A stretch of 14,776 nt of DNA, taken from the UHGV virus genome UHGV-0099190. One strand, written 5' to 3'. Numbering within the stretch: position 1 is the first letter of the stretch; every line of letters starts with the position of its first letter. The stretch is from a virus. Shown here in pieces: positions 1 through 11,732 of the stretch. Below the pieces are notes generated by a model, which saw nothing but the letters and a program-made list of their open reading frames with translations, made no database searches and was not told the origin of the DNA. The position numbers and the translations under genes are program-made.

Positions 1-76
1 CTTCACGGGCGATCTGCTGGTAGTGACGCGCCCAGCTCTGAGCCTCAAGACGATCATGAATGTAATAAGCGTTCAT
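1..76 (-). CDS. gam: Gam (RecBCD inhibitor), short-form N-terminus; partial, continues beyond left edge
   Basis: Minus-strand ATG at 76 preceded by AGGAG; translation [25 protein letters not shown] matches the GamS start of lambda Gam as I recall it; ORF runs off the window edge. Confidence 0.85.
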
Positions 77-151
77 GGCTGAACTCCTGAAAATGGCTGT
101 GAAAAAATCGCCCGCGGAATGCCAGGCTGATTCGGAAAACAGGAAAGGGGA

Positions 152-295
152 TTAGTGAATGCTTTTGCTTGATCTCAGTTTCAGTATTAATATCCATTTT
201 TTATAAGCGTCGACGGCCTCACGAAACATCTTTTCATCGCCAATAAAAGTGGCGATAGTGAATTTAGTCTGGATAACCATAAGTGTTTGATCCAT
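152..295 (-). CDS. kil: Kil (host cell-division inhibitor, 47 aa)
   Basis: 47-aa product [47 protein letters not shown] is near-identical to lambda Kil as I recall it; the six-frame ORF 152-421 is this frame extended upstream; overlaps cIII by 32 nt as in lambda. Confidence 0.85.
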
Positions 296-428
296 TTTTT
301 GGGACTCCTGGCTGATTAAGTATGTCGATAAGGCGTTTCCATCCGTCACGTAATTTACGGGTGATTCGTTCAAGTAAAGATTCGGAAGGGCAGCCAGCAA
401 CAGGCCACCCTGCAATGGCATATTGCAT
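264..428 (-). CDS. cIII: cIII (FtsH/HflB protease inhibitor, 54 aa)
   Basis: Hand translation from ATG 428 gives [54 protein letters not shown] with stop at 264-266; AAGGAG RBS 6 nt upstream; matches lambda cIII length and sequence from memory. Missed by the ORF track (under 60 aa). Confidence 0.85.
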   Translation of the reverse strand: MQYAIAGWPVAGCPSESLLERITRKLRDGWKRLIDILNQPGVPKNGSNTYGYPD

Positions 429-457
429 GGTGTGCTCCTTATTTATACATAACGAAA

Positions 458-480
458 AACGCCTCGAGTGAAGCGTTATT
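458..480 (-). terminator. Weak hairpin plus U-run between cIII and ea10 (possible tL2-type terminator)
   Basis: 5-bp stem AACGC/GCGTT (458-462 / 473-477) with 10-nt loop, followed on the minus-strand transcript by UUUUUCGUU. Stem is short, so confidence is low. Confidence 0.25.
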
Positions 481-500
481 GGTATGCGGTAACGCTGCGC

Positions 501-869
501 TCAGGCGGCTTTGATAGTCATATCATCTGAATCAAATATTCCTGATGTATCGATATCGGTAATTCTTATTCCTTCGCTACCATCCATTGGAGGCCATCCT
601 TCCTGACCATTTCCATCATTCCAGTCGAACTCACACACAACACCATATGCATTTAAGTCTTTCGAAATTGCTATAAGCAGAGCATGTTGCGCCAGCATGA
701 TTAATACAGCATTTAATAAAGAGCCGTGTTTATTTAGTCGGTATTCAGAGTCTGACCAGAAATTATTAATCTGGTGAAGTTTTTCCTCTTTCATTACGTC
801 ATGGTCGATTTCAATTTCTATTGATGCTTTCCAGTCGTAATCAATGATGTATTTTTTGATGTTTGACAT
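501..869 (-). CDS. ea10: Ea10-like early protein (122 aa)
   Basis: 122-aa ORF with GAGGA RBS; same size and position (between cIII and ral) as lambda ea10; sequence agrees with my recollection of Ea10. Confidence 0.7.
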   Translation of the reverse strand: MSNIKKYIIDYDWKASIEIEIDHDVMKEEKLHQINNFWSDSEYRLNKHGSLLNAVLIMLAQHALLIAISKDLNAYGVVCEFDWNDGNGQEGWPPMDGSEGIRITDIDTSGIFDSDDMTIKAA

Positions 870-897
870 CTATTCATATCCTCATAGATAAAAAATC

Positions 898-915
898 GCC
901 CTCACACTGGAGGGC
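898..915 (-). terminator. Intrinsic terminator hairpin upstream of ea10 on the pL transcript
   Basis: 6-bp stem GCCCTC/GAGGGC with 6-nt loop; on the minus strand it is followed by GAUUUUUUAUCU. Confidence 0.4.
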
Positions 916-1042
916 AAAGAAGATTTCCAATAATCAGAACAAGTCGGCTCCTGTTTAGTTACGAGCGACATTGCTCCGTGTATTCACTCGTTGGAATGAA
1001 TACACAGTGCAGTGTTTATTCTGTTGTTAGTGCCAAAAATAA

Positions 1043-1060
1043 AGGCCGACTATGCGGCCT
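1043..1060 (-). terminator. Intrinsic terminator immediately downstream of the 149-aa membrane-protein gene
   Basis: Stem GGCCG/CGGCC (extendable to 6 bp) with 6-nt loop, followed on the minus strand by UUUAUUUUUGG; begins about 5 nt after the stop at 1065-1067. Confidence 0.5.
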
Positions 1061-1064
1061 GAAA

Positions 1065-1514
1065 TTACTTAACCAATGATGCTGCATATTCGATAAGGTA
1101 AAGCTTTGGAGCCAGCAAAATTTTTAACCATGTCATATTGGTTACTGCACTAATAATAAAAATCCCCCACAGAGCCAAAACTCCAACTAATGGCATGATA
1201 AGAAGATTAATATCACCTTTGCTATCCCAAACCATTGTCGGCCTGTATTTGGGATTTCCCTTCTCCCATGAATATCCTTCATCACCGATTTTACCTGTCT
1301 CAACTCTTCGGCACTGCTTCTTCATAAACCAGAAAACCAGTGGGATTGTTAGAATGGCTATTAATGTTTTAATCAGACTGTCAACCATATTCCATAGCAG
1401 CAACTGATGAACAACATCAGGAATCTGCGCCTGGCTGAATGAAACAGCCGTGTCTATTCCATTGCTGGTTTTTTGCAGTAGTTCTACGAGAATCTTGTTT
1501 GCTTGTTCTTCCAT
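1065..1514 (-). CDS. Hypothetical inner-membrane protein (149 aa, two predicted TM helices); moron-like insertion, possible superinfection-exclusion function
   Basis: ORF with AAGGGG RBS; two hydrophobic segments (LIKTLIAILTIPLVFWFM and INLLIMPLVGVLALWGIFIISAV); AT-rich relative to neighbours; own downstream terminator; sits in the ral-ea10 gap, which I recall as short and gene-free in lambda. Confidence 0.65.
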   Translation of the reverse strand: MEEQANKILVELLQKTSNGIDTAVSFSQAQIPDVVHQLLLWNMVDSLIKTLIAILTIPLVFWFMKKQCRRVETGKIGDEGYSWEKGNPKYRPTMVWDSKGDINLLIMPLVGVLALWGIFIISAVTNMTWLKILLAPKLYLIEYAASLVK

Positions 1515-1573
1515 ATATCCCCTTGATTGTAATAAGCATGAAATTATTTACGGCCAAAAAATAAAGGCCACCA

Positions 1574-1774
1574 TCAGGCAGCCTTGTTGTTCTGTTTACC
1601 AAGTTCTCTGGCAATCATTGCCGTCGTTCGTATTGCCCATTTATCGACATATTTCCTATCTTCCATTACAGGAAACATTTCTTCAGGCTTAACCATGCAT
1701 TCCGATTGCAGCTTGCATCCATTGCATCGCTTGAATTGTCCACACCATTGATTTTTATCAATAGTCGTAGTCAT
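1574..1774 (-). CDS. ral: Ral (restriction alleviation, 66 aa)
   Basis: 66-aa product MTTTIDKNQWCGQFKRCNGCKLQSECMVKPEEMFPVMEDRKYVDKWAIRTTAMIARELGKQNNKAA; same size and position as lambda ral and agrees with my recollection of its sequence; preceded by an overlapping 28-aa ORF as in lambda. Confidence 0.7.
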   Translation of the reverse strand: MTTTIDKNQWCGQFKRCNGCKLQSECMVKPEEMFPVMEDRKYVDKWAIRTTAMIARELGKQNNKAA

Positions 1775-1844: not shown

Positions 1845-1902
1845 ATATCACCTCAAATAAGTGGTTTGCTGCCTAATTTTATTTTCTGGCGACCAACACA
1901 AG

Positions 1903-2175
1903 TCACCTTGCTGTCAGTTGTTTTGATTTCCTGTAGCCTGCCGCGTAAAGAGCTACATTTGGAAGACAAGTTGAGCCTTCATATTTTCTGGTCAACGTTG
2001 TCAGTGTTATTACTTCTGCTCTCATTGCTGGTTTGCGCTTGCATTGCAAGACCACTCGAGAGGGGGTTGGTCTGTGTAGCTTGTCGGAGCTAATCGCCTC
2101 CTGACTTTGCAGGTTTGCGCGACGAACTCTACGACGAGAAGCTGAGGTGCCTTTAAATTCTGTTTTTCTGGACAT
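1903..2175 (-). CDS. N: N-like transcription antitermination protein (90 aa), P22 gp24-type
   Basis: Start ATG 2175 with GGGAGG RBS; N-terminal arginine-rich motif GTSASRRRVRRAN; C-terminus LPNVALYAAGYRKSKQLTAR closely resembles the P22 gene 24 C-terminus (LPGVALYAAGHRKSKQITAR) from memory; nutL lies upstream. The 118-aa track ORF (start 2259) has no RBS. Confidence 0.75.
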   Translation of the reverse strand: MSRKTEFKGTSASRRRVRRANLQSQEAISSDKLHRPTPSRVVLQCKRKPAMRAEVITLTTLTRKYEGSTCLPNVALYAAGYRKSKQLTAR

Positions 2176-2273
2176 AGATTCCTCCCGAATAAACTTTGGT
2201 GATGCAATCTCGAAGCTCCTCCTGAGACGGTTGCTTCGGCATTGCATCCCACAGCTCATGTGGTTGGGTGATC

Positions 2274-2609: not shown

Positions 2610-3386
2610 CTAGGCTACCAGAGACTCAATCCAAGAGTCTCTGGTATGGAATGGCAACACTCGTGCGGTATCATTAAATAGTAATGATAGTTGCTGTAGC
2701 TCAGGTGTTAACCCATCGCTGTCAACTATTACAAATCTATTGTTTATGTCAGGAACGACCTGACTTAAGTCAACAATCTTCCCAACTGTTGAGTGGGCAG
2801 TATTCCATCCCTTACTGCTGGCAAGGCTTACCGTAAACCCGCGTTTTGGTGGTATTAGTCGAGACTCATTCCTTAGCGTTAACGGAACAGTAATGTTATG
2901 CCCACTAATACCTTTCACTTTTTCCTTTAAGACTAGTCGCTTCCCAAGCCCTGCTGATTTTAAGTAACTGATTACACATTTTTCGAACTTATCGTCTTTG
3001 ACCTCAGCATACCAATCAGCAGTTTGGGCGGATGCAAGAATCCCACCACGAATAACATTTGCAGTTACCTGTCCAACGGACGACTCATCTGCCCACGCAG
3101 ATATCTCTCCAGAGTCATTTAATGAAATTCCTTGCGAAGCGAGTGATGACCTGATCAGATCAATTTTCTTTTTAGTCAGGTGGATGCCGCGTGATTCAAT
3201 ATTCATCAATGTATCGCAGTAGTCTGTAACCCTATACTGACCACTCATCTCTTGAACGAATACACTTATCTGCTCACAATCATCGTAGTATGTGAATGGA
3301 CTAATAACGCGCAGCAACGTGTCGCTCATTGGGTGGCATTCAAACCCGAGCTTAGATATGACTGTTGAACACGTTACATTTCCCAT
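2610..3386 (-). CDS. Hypothetical protein (258 aa), second gene of the cI-linked cassette in the rexB position; function unknown
   Basis: ORF whose ATG (3384-3386) overlaps the end of the upstream 180-aa ORF by 13 nt; AT-rich; no TM segments; no family I can recognise. An alternative start at 3329 (MSDTLL) is possible. Confidence 0.65.
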   Translation of the reverse strand: MGNVTCSTVISKLGFECHPMSDTLLRVISPFTYYDDCEQISVFVQEMSGQYRVTDYCDTLMNIESRGIHLTKKKIDLIRSSLASQGISLNDSGEISAWADESSVGQVTANVIRGGILASAQTADWYAEVKDDKFEKCVISYLKSAGLGKRLVLKEKVKGISGHNITVPLTLRNESRLIPPKRGFTVSLASSKGWNTAHSTVGKIVDLSQVVPDINNRFVIVDSDGLTPELQQLSLLFNDTARVLPFHTRDSWIESLVA

Positions 3387-3916
3387 GATAACTGACCTGA
3401 TTTATCTTGATTAGGTAAAGGTGGGCTGCCTTCATATATGATATTAAGCGCCTCGCAAAAATAATTCCAGTAGCCAAAAAAATCATCTGGCTTGATGTTC
3501 GTTTCAAGCTTAAGTGCAATTTCTTCCCCAGCTGATTCGAAGTACATGTGATAGTGAGGACCTCGAGCCACCTCAACAAAATCTGGATGGTTCACTATAG
3601 ATTTATTACGGTGTGGCTTGTTATCCGCAGGGTACGGATCAAGCGCGTAAATGCGCCTGTCATGAAGAAACATCACAAATGAAATCTTCACTATATCCAC
3701 CCCTTCAACGATAGGAGGACGCCAGTGAAGCATAAATCTTATGCCTGTGATTGGGTTGCCAATTTCATCAAAAGCTTTGAGATCCAATTTAAACCAGATT
3801 GGGGTTCGTCCCTCACTTCCGGTCCATGTAACTCCGCTAAAAGTTACTTTTTTCAAGCGAGTAATAGCTTGGTCAACCTCTTTCTGGGTAGGCTTAAAGT
3901 CGCCTTTTTTAGCCAC
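3374..3916 (-). CDS. Hypothetical protein (180 aa), first gene of the cI-linked cassette in the rexA position; function unknown
   Basis: ORF starting at GTG 3916 (in-frame TGA 9 nt upstream; GGTGA SD-like motif 9 nt upstream), 46 nt downstream of the cI stop on the same strand; no recognisable family; no TM segments. Confidence 0.6.
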   Translation of the reverse strand: MAKKGDFKPTQKEVDQAITRLKKVTFSGVTWTGSEGRTPIWFKLDLKAFDEIGNPITGIRFMLHWRPPIVEGVDIVKISFVMFLHDRRIYALDPYPADNKPHRNKSIVNHPDFVEVARGPHYHMYFESAGEEIALKLETNIKPDDFFGYWNYFCEALNIIYEGSPPLPNQDKSGQLSWEM

Positions 3917-3962: not shown

Positions 3963-4622
3963 TCACCCAAACGTCTCTTCAGGCCACTGACTAGCGATAA
4001 CTTTCCCCACAACGGAACAACTCTCATTGCATGGGATCATTGGGTATTGTGGGTTTAGTGGCTGTAGAAACACCTGACCGCTATCCCTGATCAGTTTCTT
4101 GAAGGTAAATTCATCACCACCAAGTCTGGCTATGCAGAAATCGCCGGGCTCAACAGCTTGCTCAGGGTCAACCAGAATTAACATCCCGTCAGGAAAACTG
4201 GGTTTGGAACCTGTTGGTGCGGTCATTGAGTTACCTTCAACCTCAAGCCAGAATGCAGAGTCACTGGCTTTTTTGGTTGTGCTTACCAATCTCTCCGCAT
4301 CGCCTTTGGTAAAGGTTCTGAGTTCTGGAGAGAACATCCCAGCCTGAACATGAGAAAATACAGGGTACTCATATTGTTTTTTAACTGGGGCCGATGAGTA
4401 TTCGCCAACAGGTGAAAATGTCCCGTCGTGGTTGAATGATATGTTATCAATACCAAGGTATTTAAACACCACACCAATATCACTAAGAGATGGATGACGA
4501 GATCCGCGCAACCAGTGTCCAATCCCACCCTGCGTCATACCTAGCTCTTCGGCTAACTTCTCTTGAGTTATGCCGAGCTCTTTCATTCTGGATCTAGCCA
4601 GTTCATACCATTTCATTTTCAT
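3963..4622 (-). CDS. cI: CI-type prophage repressor (219 aa): XRE-family HTH N-terminal domain plus LexA/S24-like autocleavage C-terminal domain
   Basis: Start ATG 4622 (MKMKWYEL) with AAGGA RBS; [24 protein letters not shown]; C-terminal domain from [14 protein letters not shown] to the end, including the Ala-Gly cleavage site, GNSM serine and FTFKKL lysine, matches lambda cI from memory. The track start at 4664 has no RBS. Confidence 0.85.
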
Positions 4623-4732
4623 GTCCTTATTATTACGCTCTGTACTGGAACCATCCATGCACAATGTGTATTTTTGCTTGTATTTTGAAAATACATATTG
4701 TATTTTTTATTCGAGGTTACTATGGAGGGCAT
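4623..4732. promoter_or_regulatory. oR/pR/pRM divergent control region with a perfect 17-bp palindromic operator candidate
   Basis: Perfect palindrome TGTATTTTGAAAATACA at 4679-4695; further TGTAT half-sites at 4667 and 4699 and inverted repeat ATACA-TAT-TGTAT at 4691-4703; lies between divergent cI and cro starts. Confidence 0.5.
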
Positions 4733-10222: not shown

Positions 10223-11305
10223 TTAGAACTGATACACCAGACCTACAGCGACGATGTCGTCGGTATCAATACCAGCTGTTTTGGTAAACTTACTATCGTC
10301 AATTAAGTTGATTTTGTAATCAACAAAAGTGGACATGTTTTTATTAAAGTAGTAAGTAGCACCGACATCGACATACTTGACTAAGTCTCGGTCACCATGA
10401 ACACCAAGGTCTTTACCTTTTGACTGAAGGTAAGCAACAGATGGTCGCAGACCGAAGTCAAACTGATATTGTGCTACTGCTTCAAAGTTTTGTGCTTTGT
10501 TTGCAATATGGTTATTACCAAAAACGGTCATATTCTGAGTTTCAGAATATGTGGTAGCCAGATAGATATTGTTCGCATCATATTTCAGGCCTGCAGCCCA
10601 TACTTCCGCATTTTTGCCGGAGGCATTGAATTTGCTCTTACCATAGGCGACCTGACCGTCAGTGCGATCTGATTTAGCATAGGTTGCACCCACGCCGAAT
10701 CCTTCATACTCATAAGTAGTGGAGAAACCGAAACCATCACCATTGGCTTCAGTTACGTCAGTGCGGTCATTTTTACCCTGATACTGAGCAGCAAAGTTCA
10801 GGCCATCGACCAGACCAAAGAAGTCGTTGTTACGATAGGTTGCAACACCAGTTGCACGTTTAGTCATGAACACGTCGGTTTGAGTCCAAGTGTCACCACC
10901 GAATTCTGGCAGGACGTCAGTCCACGCACCGATGTCGTATGCTACACCGTAGTTACGGCCGTAATCGATGGAGCCGTAGTCACCGAATTTCAGGCCAGCG
11001 AAGGCAAGACGGGTTTTATCTTTGGAGGAACCTTGAGATTCAGCGCGGTTGCCTTTGAATTCATATTCCCACTGACCGAAACCAGTCAGTTGATCGTTGA
11101 TTTGGGTTTCACCTTTGAAGCCAAGACGGGCATAAGTAGTATCACCATCATCTGCATCATTAGAGGAGAAGTAGTGCTTAGCATTAACTTTCCCGTACAG
11201 ATCCAGCTTGTTACTGTCTTTATTATAAATTTCAGCTGCCTGAGCAGACATCGCCATCAGTACTGATGCAGCTACAGCAGAAATTGCCACTGTTAATTTT
11301 TTCAT
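10223..11305 (-). CDS. nmpC: Outer-membrane general porin, OmpC/OmpF family (NmpC/Lc-like), with signal peptide; intact
   Basis: Start ATG 11305 ([23 protein letters not shown] / AEIYNKD...) with AAGGG RBS; C-terminal VGLVYQF beta-barrel signature; between Q and S as in DLP12 and phage PA-2; antisense to the late operon. Confidence 0.9.
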
Positions 11306-11732
11306 CGTGAGCCCTTTTTTTGAACTATTATTAAAAAATGATGTCACTGCGCGATAAATATTCATCTAATCAATGTGATTATTTCAAGATGTAAGTTTTG
11401 GTTTCTCGTTTGATTTGTGAAGTAGATCTCTATTTTTATCTGAACTTTTTTCTATCGAATCCTATTCATGGCTCTTGGCTGAATAAAAATAAATCTATTA
11501 GTCAATTTGTATTAACGGCTGTTATTTATAAGTGCTCTATAATTTGAAGGTTCAATTTAAACCGGCTAAAAATAACACTGGAAATTATTTGTTGGTTATT
11601 TGTTGAGATTTGCTTATGTATTTGTAGTGGTGTTTTCAATACTCGGTAGCATTCTCGCAAATATCATTTAGTGGTTTACGTACGTAAAAAATTGGTTATG
11701 CTGTTAAGAGTGGTTACTTCGTCACACAGCTT

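Follow-up and report, generated by a model that had tools for sequence, protein, structure and literature searches.

What is the additional gene between ral and ea10 in the prophage sequence UHGV-0099190, when is it likely to be expressed, and what might it do? The 14,776-nucleotide (nt) stretch of this virus genome that we analyzed (the window) corresponds to the immunity and early region of a lambda-like E. coli prophage, and its pL operon, on the minus strand, includes a 149-codon open reading frame (ORF) at a position where lambda has no gene. A preliminary description proposed that this ORF is a membrane-protein moron, i.e. an inserted gene with its own terminator and a markedly AT-rich composition, and a candidate for a SieB-type exclusion gene. 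We find instead that it is a further member of a catalogued but uncharacterised family, that of Sf6 gene 34 and phrog_3054, located at a known mosaic junction. It appears to have been acquired as a cassette with a ribosome-binding site (RBS) and a terminator, and would be read from pL together with its neighbors. Coordinates of the features discussed are collected in Table 1.

The interval between ral and ea10 spans 704 bp in the window compared with 182 bp in lambda (33905–34086), where it is gene-free and contains only the tL2a terminator region; the preliminary description had given the lambda gap as short and empty, and the same gene is indeed absent from lambda, which has no member of the family. 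A closer comparison is provided by a sister prophage in E. coli F5, which is 97–98% identical to the window on both sides of the insertion, has a short lambda-type gap, and lacks the gene. By blastn, window positions 1–1053 match F5 1–1051 and positions 1544–1869 match F5 1023–1345, with the two matches overlapping by 29 bp, and positions 1054–1543 are thus a clean 490-bp indel. The locus is a clean natural case of a lambdoid early operon gaining a gene, in the form of an apparently promoter-less gene with its terminator, for which a near-isogenic sister without the cassette is available. The two prophages also differ between ral and N, where sieB is present in the F5 prophage and absent from the window (717 bp at F5 1346–2062 versus 33 bp at window positions 1870–1902); within 1 kb, the window and F5 prophages are thus distinguished by two indels of accessory genes that are independent of each other.

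Aligned to lambda, Sf6 and HF4s, the minus strand of the window runs in the order ral, a tL2a-like hairpin, about 40 nt that include the RBS, the ORF, and a second hairpin with a T-run, downstream of which the window sequence rejoins lambda exactly. The insertion is bounded by two copies of a direct repeat of about 29 bp that contains the 3′ arm of a tL2a-type terminator, the T-run, and the sequence GGCAYAAA. This duplication of a terminator tail on both sides is the signature of recombination at a known mosaic boundary (tL2a / bsq4). In Sf6, gene 34 occupies the same slot behind ral, with a tL2a-type terminator upstream and the boundary sequence downstream, and the GenBank record describes these as 'terminator, homology to lambda tL2A' (elsewhere worded 'homology to phage lambda; tL2A'), 'bsq4 boundary sequence' and 'gene 34 protein'. 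The gene is thus an ordinary genomic feature, its slot, terminator and boundary sequence having already been annotated in Sf6.

Terminator-like sites are more frequent in this region than expected, with six found between positions 400 and 2700 against 1.9 expected. The one that follows the ORF, which the preliminary description had placed correctly at 1043–1060, is supported by both the scan and the predicted fold, and almost every one of 80 related IMG/VR loci has a hairpin GGCCGCATAGTCGGCC with a T-run 3′ of the stop codon, whichever gene follows. The upstream side behaves differently. Across the 80 loci there are at least six unrelated kinds of upstream context, including ral with its terminator, another gene with the same terminator, the stop codons of several types of N, and the sieB start region, and similarity starts only at the RBS. 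Among 51 distinct upstream contexts the RBS is the sole element that is kept, with a (T)TATTTRAGGTGAKAT-ATG-like sequence, and the good RBS reported previously is present in the window as AAGGGG positioned 4 nt before the ATG. These comparisons indicate that the mobile unit is most simply described as RBS, ORF and terminator.

A consensus promoter scan of the minus strand upstream of the ORF identified no sigma-70-like site, and the best candidate found by eye, TTGGCC-17-TATTAC, lacks the invariant final T. In many of the 80 loci the ATG is no more than about 30 nt from the N stop codon, and in HF4s it follows the annotated N gene by 8 nt, so there is no room in these prophages for a promoter of its own. 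In each of the 80 loci the gene points the same way as its neighbors (N, ral, ea10 and cIII). Promoter-like (1130–1157) and terminator-like (1432–1450) sites on the plus strand within the ORF were considered and set aside as being at chance level (three promoter-like sites versus 5.4 expected).

In lambda, pL is repressed in lysogens, and the N product is needed for read-through of the operon terminators, including those of the tL type. With pL repressed in a lysogen and a cassette in which we find no promoter, the gene should be silent in the prophage state and, by analogy with lambda, should be read from pL in lytic growth. Because the tL2a-like terminator lies between ral and the ORF, pL transcription must read through it to reach the gene, and expression in the window prophage is thus expected to be delayed-early and N-dependent. 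Where the gene directly follows N, its own terminator should be the first stop encountered and expression should be immediate-early.

These features bear on whether the cassette is a moron. HK97 gene 15, which encodes a membrane exclusion protein, is the prototype moron, and the window gene resembles it in being extra DNA relative to sister phages, in having a 3′ terminator, and in coding for a membrane protein. The two are compared here by the moron definition alone, and the promoter and deviant GC content that the definition also calls for were not found for the window gene. By the published definition, morons each carry a promoter and a terminator of their own, have a GC content unlike that of their flanks, and are expressed from a repressed prophage (Cumby et al. 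2012, PMC3594210). The cassette is extra DNA relative both to lambda and to the 97–98% identical prophage, and its terminator (1060–1033) accompanies the gene in almost all of the 80 loci; however, neither the consensus scan nor the comparison of upstream contexts reveals a promoter, and the composition is not deviant. The GC content of the ORF is 39.6% and that of the insert 39.4%, compared with 37.4% for ea10, 41.3% for ral, 34–42% for the intergenic regions, and 45% for the window as a whole. The ORF is low in GC relative to the window but not relative to its neighbors, and composition does not mark the insert as foreign. The description as markedly AT-rich thus does not hold against the 37–41% of the neighboring genes, and of the properties of a moron the extra DNA and the terminator are present, whereas a promoter and a deviant GC content were not found. 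Judged from sequence, the cassette lacks two of the defining properties and is not a moron by the published definition. The mis-call is an easy one to make, but neither label, moron or exclusion gene, follows simply from an additional gene encoding a membrane protein and having a terminator.

The protein matches phrog_3054, a family of unknown function, over its entire length (E=6.4e-62, residues 1–149 against positions 1–137 of the 137-position profile), and each of 53 diverse relatives likewise matches this PHROG alone. Alignment and hydropathy show that the protein has the N- and C-terminal motifs of the family, F-S-x-A-Q-I-P-D-V-V-x-Q-L-L-x-W and A-P-K-L-Y-L-x-E-Y-A-A-S-L, around a core with two transmembrane (TM) segments. 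The Sf6 gene 34 protein (AAQ12224.1) is in the same family, with a full-length hidden Markov model match and the same terminal motifs, even though it is only 48% identical overall and its TM1-loop-TM2 core is unalignable. HF4s_0037, annotated as 'TM helix-containing protein', also belongs here, its gene lying directly after N without ral, as do entries labeled 'TMhelix containing protein' in Nahant Vibrio phages. A word-indexed search recovered full-length homologues in 451 clusters at 90% identity, and 1,826 representatives at 50% identity match at E<=1e-3 (477 at E<=1e-10); homologues in this number of clusters put the coding status of the ORF beyond chance.

Known folds and domains provide little further guidance. 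Pfam and NCBIfam scans of the protein returned no family, a Pfam scan of the 53 relatives gave only chance transmembrane matches, and a sequence-profile search of the PDB gave only chance matches to G-protein-coupled receptors (E ~0.5). Foldseek found nothing in the PDB, and only uncharacterised family members in BFVD. No functional study of Sf6 gp34, of phrog_3054, or of membrane proteins encoded between ral and ea10 was found in the literature searched.

The preliminary description had also recognized two TM helices, and these correspond to hydrophobic segments by Kyte-Doolittle analysis at approximately residues 44–65 and 102–126. An AlphaFold2 (AF2) model built from 53 sequences is all-helical, with a predicted local distance difference test (pLDDT) score of 69, and TMHMM predicts two TM segments in a published allele (AEW47744.1). 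The models indicate that the protein is a two-helix membrane hairpin with both termini on the same membrane face. Lysine and arginine residues are concentrated after TM1, with an average of 2.7 in eight residues compared with 0.4 before it (49 members), and by the positive-inside rule this places the loop in the cytoplasm and predicts that both conserved termini are periplasmic. The N-terminal segment is net acidic, with 118 K/R and 300 D/E residues in the same 49 members.

Conservation is distributed in an unusual manner. In the 53-sequence alignment, conserved columns are confined to the first ~41 and last ~23 residues (L9, G19, F26, P32, V34, Q37–L39 and W41 at the N-terminus, and L130, I132, A135-P136-K137, L140, E142-Y143, A145 and L147 at the C-terminus, with A135 and K137 invariant), whereas the TM1-loop-TM2 center is hypervariable in both sequence and length, ranging from 51 to 110 aa between alleles. 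Among 94 relatives in which the center is less than 30% identical to that of the window protein, mean identity is 54% at the N-terminus and 73% at the C-terminus. A comparison of the Sf6 and window DNA is illustrative: the N-terminal ~44 and last ~20 codons of gene 34 are near-identical to those of the window, and the core (window 1137–1385; Sf6 2750–3000) is unalignable and of different length. At least four core types are found behind N-termini that are at least 80% identical. Outright replacement of the core while the flanking DNA is near-identical, as between Sf6 and the window, indicates that alleles swap cores by recombination within conserved ends.

The gene is evidently dispensable: lambda, the sister prophage and the majority of lambdoid phages do without it. 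Of 5,426 complete E. coli genomes, 130 (~2%) carry the window allele at a coverage of at least 80%, always annotated 'hypothetical protein', and by tblastn a family member is carried by 181 of 50,697 phage records. Temperate carriers among the matches listed include Sf6, CUS-3, HK633, HK639, N7, SPN9CC, Gally, HF4s and two Stx2a phages, comprising lambdoid and P22-like phages. P22 itself is not among the matches listed, which are the best 60 and a spread of 40 from the 181 records and so do not establish its absence there. The family is not restricted to temperate phages, and full-length members are present in virulent N4-like Schitoviridae (FSL SP-076, Shigella B2, Vibrio 1.245.O), in phi92-like Justusliebigvirus phages (outra, muut, alia), and in further virulent or non-lambdoid phages, namely Vibrio myo- and siphoviruses, the P. 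syringae phage Lyrsu02, and Citrobacter K1M. In every virulent or non-lambdoid case inspected, the gene belongs to a series of small and mostly unannotated genes that share its direction, in some cases as the last of them; such runs adjoin genes for nucleotide metabolism, RNA polymerase or replication, and mark the early or accessory region of the genome. In the contexts inspected, no partner gene was consistently found next to it. A MoxR-type ATPase was considered as a partner and rejected, as it lies within a few kb in the N4-like and Justusliebigvirus genomes, is neither adjacent nor consistent, and is absent from the lambdoid, Vibrio and Pseudomonas contexts.

Our preferred explanation is that this is a real but non-essential accessory gene of the pL operon, coding for an inner-membrane protein that is produced early and has a conserved component of the host envelope as its target. 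We consider this somewhat better than an even bet (a probability of roughly 0.55). The cassette, lacking a promoter, would be read from pL with N, ral, ea10 and cIII after induction or infection. The two-helix hairpin, which together with its loop is free to vary, would be a mere anchor, holding the conserved termini at the inner membrane, probably on its periplasmic face, where they would bind a putative envelope component that is kept across the Gammaproteobacteria; a conserved target of this type would account for phages with unrelated virions and hosts keeping the same motifs. The envelope of an already-infected cell would be modified as a consequence, either in host take-over, for example by a block of division or secretion, or in protection of the infection, for example against a secondary infection. 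Candidate outcomes are thus protection from secondary infection, host take-over and counter-defence, and we consider a function in the infected cell to be much more likely than an immunity role expressed from the prophage.

A broader version of this proposal, in which phrog_3054 and Sf6 gp34 represent an unrecognized, widespread class of early effectors in temperate and virulent phages of Gammaproteobacteria, with a two-helix anchor of unconstrained sequence and two short, conserved periplasmic helices that capture a conserved envelope machine and give a superinfection block or host shut-down unrelated to those of Imm, Sp, SieA/B and Cor, is speculative and on balance doubtful. If it were true, candidates for the machine would include the divisome, Sec/YidC, FtsH-HflKC, and a component for DNA entry. 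A large family that has no relative in Pfam, NCBIfam or the PDB, with constrained termini, a free TM core, and early expression predicted in temperate and lytic phages alike, is a reasonable target for a host-partner search.

Several observations weigh against the proposed role of the protein at the envelope. The call that there is no promoter comes from a consensus scan and comparative context, and a weak promoter, a non-sigma-70 promoter, or one internal to ral or N is possible. The periplasmic location of the termini is predicted by the positive-inside rule alone, and the C-terminus carries two to three conserved lysines. The AF2 model is mediocre at its pLDDT of 69, with no functional fold match. 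What we say of expression and function is drawn from sequence, and the host partner is hypothetical. Finally, the sole family member in a published accessory-gene screen was reported without a phenotype. This is construct orf47 (UDP0047; AEW47744.1 of Salmonella phage SPN9CC) of the algorithm-picked 200-gene library of Silas et al., a 121-aa protein that shares the termini of the family, with a short core between them and two TM segments by TMHMM. Imm and Cor came out of the screens as protective; the text of neither paper names orf47 among lethal, sensitizing or protective constructs, nor is it among the cloning failures. This silence is weak negative evidence against exclusion, and it also fits a role that is invisible to the screen. 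Other proteins from the same study that might have been informative proved to be unrelated: orf88, an uncloneable construct beside ral (orf87), encodes a different protein, and the Gnarl proteins are 40–90 aa long and without relationship to this family.

The alternative put forward originally, a moron-type gene for superinfection exclusion or abortive infection that the repressed prophage would express to protect the lysogen, as with SieB, SieA or HK97 gp15, would be in keeping with a small inner-membrane protein in the accessory slot of pL where lambda and P22 keep sieB, with a terminator of its own, with dispensability and a patchy distribution, and with a hypervariable core and allele swapping among close relatives as in arms-race genes. 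The likeness to lambda and P22 SieB and P22 SieA is that these too are membrane proteins, which lambdoid phages encode within the pL region or close to it. SieB, however, has its own promoter and, as annotated in lambda, is encoded between N and ral and antisense to pL, whereas the window gene is in the sense orientation, downstream of ral, with no promoter found and in many prophages no room for one. It is located behind a terminator in a repressed operon and has the GC content of its flanks. Profile comparisons lend no support either, with hhalign probabilities for the family alignment of 0.15% against lambda SieB, 0.11% against P22 SieA, and 0.18% against T4 Imm (PF14373), no PADLOC-DB 2.0 family matched by the protein at E<=0.1, and no annotated exclusion PHROG matched by the 53 members. 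The resemblance to T4 Imm, a superinfection-immunity protein, as a small, early, dispensable inner-membrane protein with two TM segments, is one of functional analogy alone; there is no sequence relation, the long conserved segment at the N-terminus has no equivalent in Imm, and it is the TM segments that are variable in the phrog_3054 family. The idea that the gene replaces sieB, suggested by its presence in the window without sieB and the converse in F5, was discarded because a SieB gene is directly upstream in 10 of the 80 loci. Full-length homologues in virulent phages, which form no lysogens, and the failure of orf47 to be reported as protective in a screen that detected Imm and Cor also argue against this alternative, and we regard such a prophage-expressed exclusion gene as distinctly unlikely; a role in exclusion during lytic growth is more plausible.

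Counter-defence is a second alternative, in which an early membrane protein would neutralize a membrane-acting abortive-infection effector of the host or a prophage, much as T4 rII acts against RexAB. Early expression, as predicted here, in both temperate and virulent phages would suit such a role, as would a hypervariable core suggestive of antagonistic co-evolution. Defence effectors are strain-specific and diverse, whereas the termini are nearly the same in Vibrio, Pseudomonas and enterobacterial phages, for which a housekeeping target is a better fit. The location in an accessory region beside the anti-restriction gene ral, and the choice of a family member from such regions by the algorithm of Silas et al., speak for counter-defence, but orf47 is not named among the constructs that sensitize the host, and this explanation too seems unlikely. 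A lysis-timing or membrane-permeabilizing function (holin, antiholin, pinholin-like protein or depolarizing toxin) is suggested by the class II holin architecture of a small phage protein with two TM segments, and by a gene that is often last in its transcription unit. It is highly improbable for a member of an early operon about 11 kb from the lysis genes (essD/rrrD-type, ~12–13 kb in the annotation of the sister prophage), given that no holin Pfam or PHROG is matched by the protein or its relatives, that TM segments are conserved in holins and variable here, and that orf47 was not among the failed clonings. Dispensability and the lack of a reported phenotype could also describe a hitch-hiking or decaying ORF without a current function, but this is barely credible in light of intact full-length homologues in ~1,800 clusters at 50% identity from distant phages and hosts, with strongly conserved terminal motifs and a maintained two-TM architecture. 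We therefore favor the envelope-directed accessory protein described above.

Table 1. Positions of the cassette, its parts and neighboring genes in the window
Feature	Position	Strand	Evidence or remark
cIII	264-428	-	Window gene
ea10 / DUF2528	501..869	-	Pfam E=1.6e-46; downstream gene
Direct repeat of ~29 bp, right-hand copy	1025..1053		Exact core AAAAATAAAGGCC at 1035-1047
Intrinsic terminator of the ORF	1033..1060	-	Stem 1060-1043 (AGGCCG-CATAGT-CGGCCT), then TTATTTTTGG; scan and fold, -9.7 kcal/mol
Cassette (RBS, ORF and terminator hairpin), 490 bp	1054..1543		Absent from lambda and sister prophage; blastn, alignment
149-aa ORF (stop codon 1065-1067)	1065..1514	-	phrog_3054 / Sf6 gene 34 family
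Codons 127-149, conserved amphipathic C-terminal segment	1068..1136	-	W-L-K-I-W-x-A-P-K-L-Y-L-x-E-Y-A-A-S-L-V-K
Codons 102-126, hydrophobic helix TM2	1137..1211	-	Hydropathy, AF2 model
Codons 66-101, variable loop, predicted cytoplasmic	1212..1319	-	Positive-inside rule
Codons 44-65, hydrophobic helix TM1, then K/R cluster KKQCRR	1320..1385	-	Kyte-Doolittle
Codons 1-41, conserved acidic N-terminal helical segment	1392..1514	-	Motif F-S-Q-A-Q-I-P-D-V-V-x-Q-L-L-x-W; alignment
Shine-Dalgarno sequence AAGGGG	1519..1524	-	4 nt before ATG; read from sequence
Direct repeat of ~29 bp, left-hand copy	1544..1572		Exact core AAAAATAAAGGCC at 1557-1569
Lambda tL2a-like terminator directly after ral	1554..1585	-	Stem 1585-1564 and T-run; -13.9 kcal/mol; lambda alignment
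ral	1574..1774	-	Pfam Ral E=4.9e-47; upstream gene in pL operon
N antiterminator homologue	1903..2259	-	PF25694 E=2e-31; first gene of operon
Two genes in rexAB position	2610-3916	-	Between cI and pL/N
cI-type repressor	3963-4664	-	Window gene

Some additional features of the window were observed. The start of cIII has a full-length Rfam match to the lambda cIII thermoregulator Lambda_thermo (RF01804) at positions 383–441 on the minus strand (88.5 bits, E=7e-21); the element is expected in a lambda-like phage and confirms the identity of the operon. Between the terminator of the ORF and ea10 is a noncoding stretch (886–1034, minus strand), of which ~130 nt are invariant among the window, lambda, Sf6 (the 'bsq4 boundary sequence') and HF4s. 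The RNA is predicted to fold with an energy of -51.4 kcal/mol (z=-5.3, with none of 200 shuffled sequences as low), forming a perfect 14-bp hairpin within a longer stem, followed by a terminator hairpin at 917–896. An Rfam search with this stretch gave no match, and the fold suggests that it may be a structured element, a processing site, or a small RNA of the pL transcript.

The lambda rexA/rexB slot is occupied by an overlapping pair of genes (2610–3386 and 3374–3916, both on the minus strand), coding for proteins of 258 aa (DUF1828, phrog_1960) and 180 aa (a weak match to DUF6978, phrog_2017). The pair matches the PADLOC candidate defence system PDC-M24 (M24B E=6e-7; M24A E=4e-4), recurs in the F5 sister prophage, and looks like a candidate two-gene defence system that would be expressed from the prophage. 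An ompC-type porin gene is located on the opposite strand between a Q-type antiterminator and the lysis genes in related prophages (10387–11469 in the F5 prophage), and by homology its position in the window would be ~10.3–11.6 kb. Insertion of a porin gene of this kind is of the classic lysogenic-conversion type.

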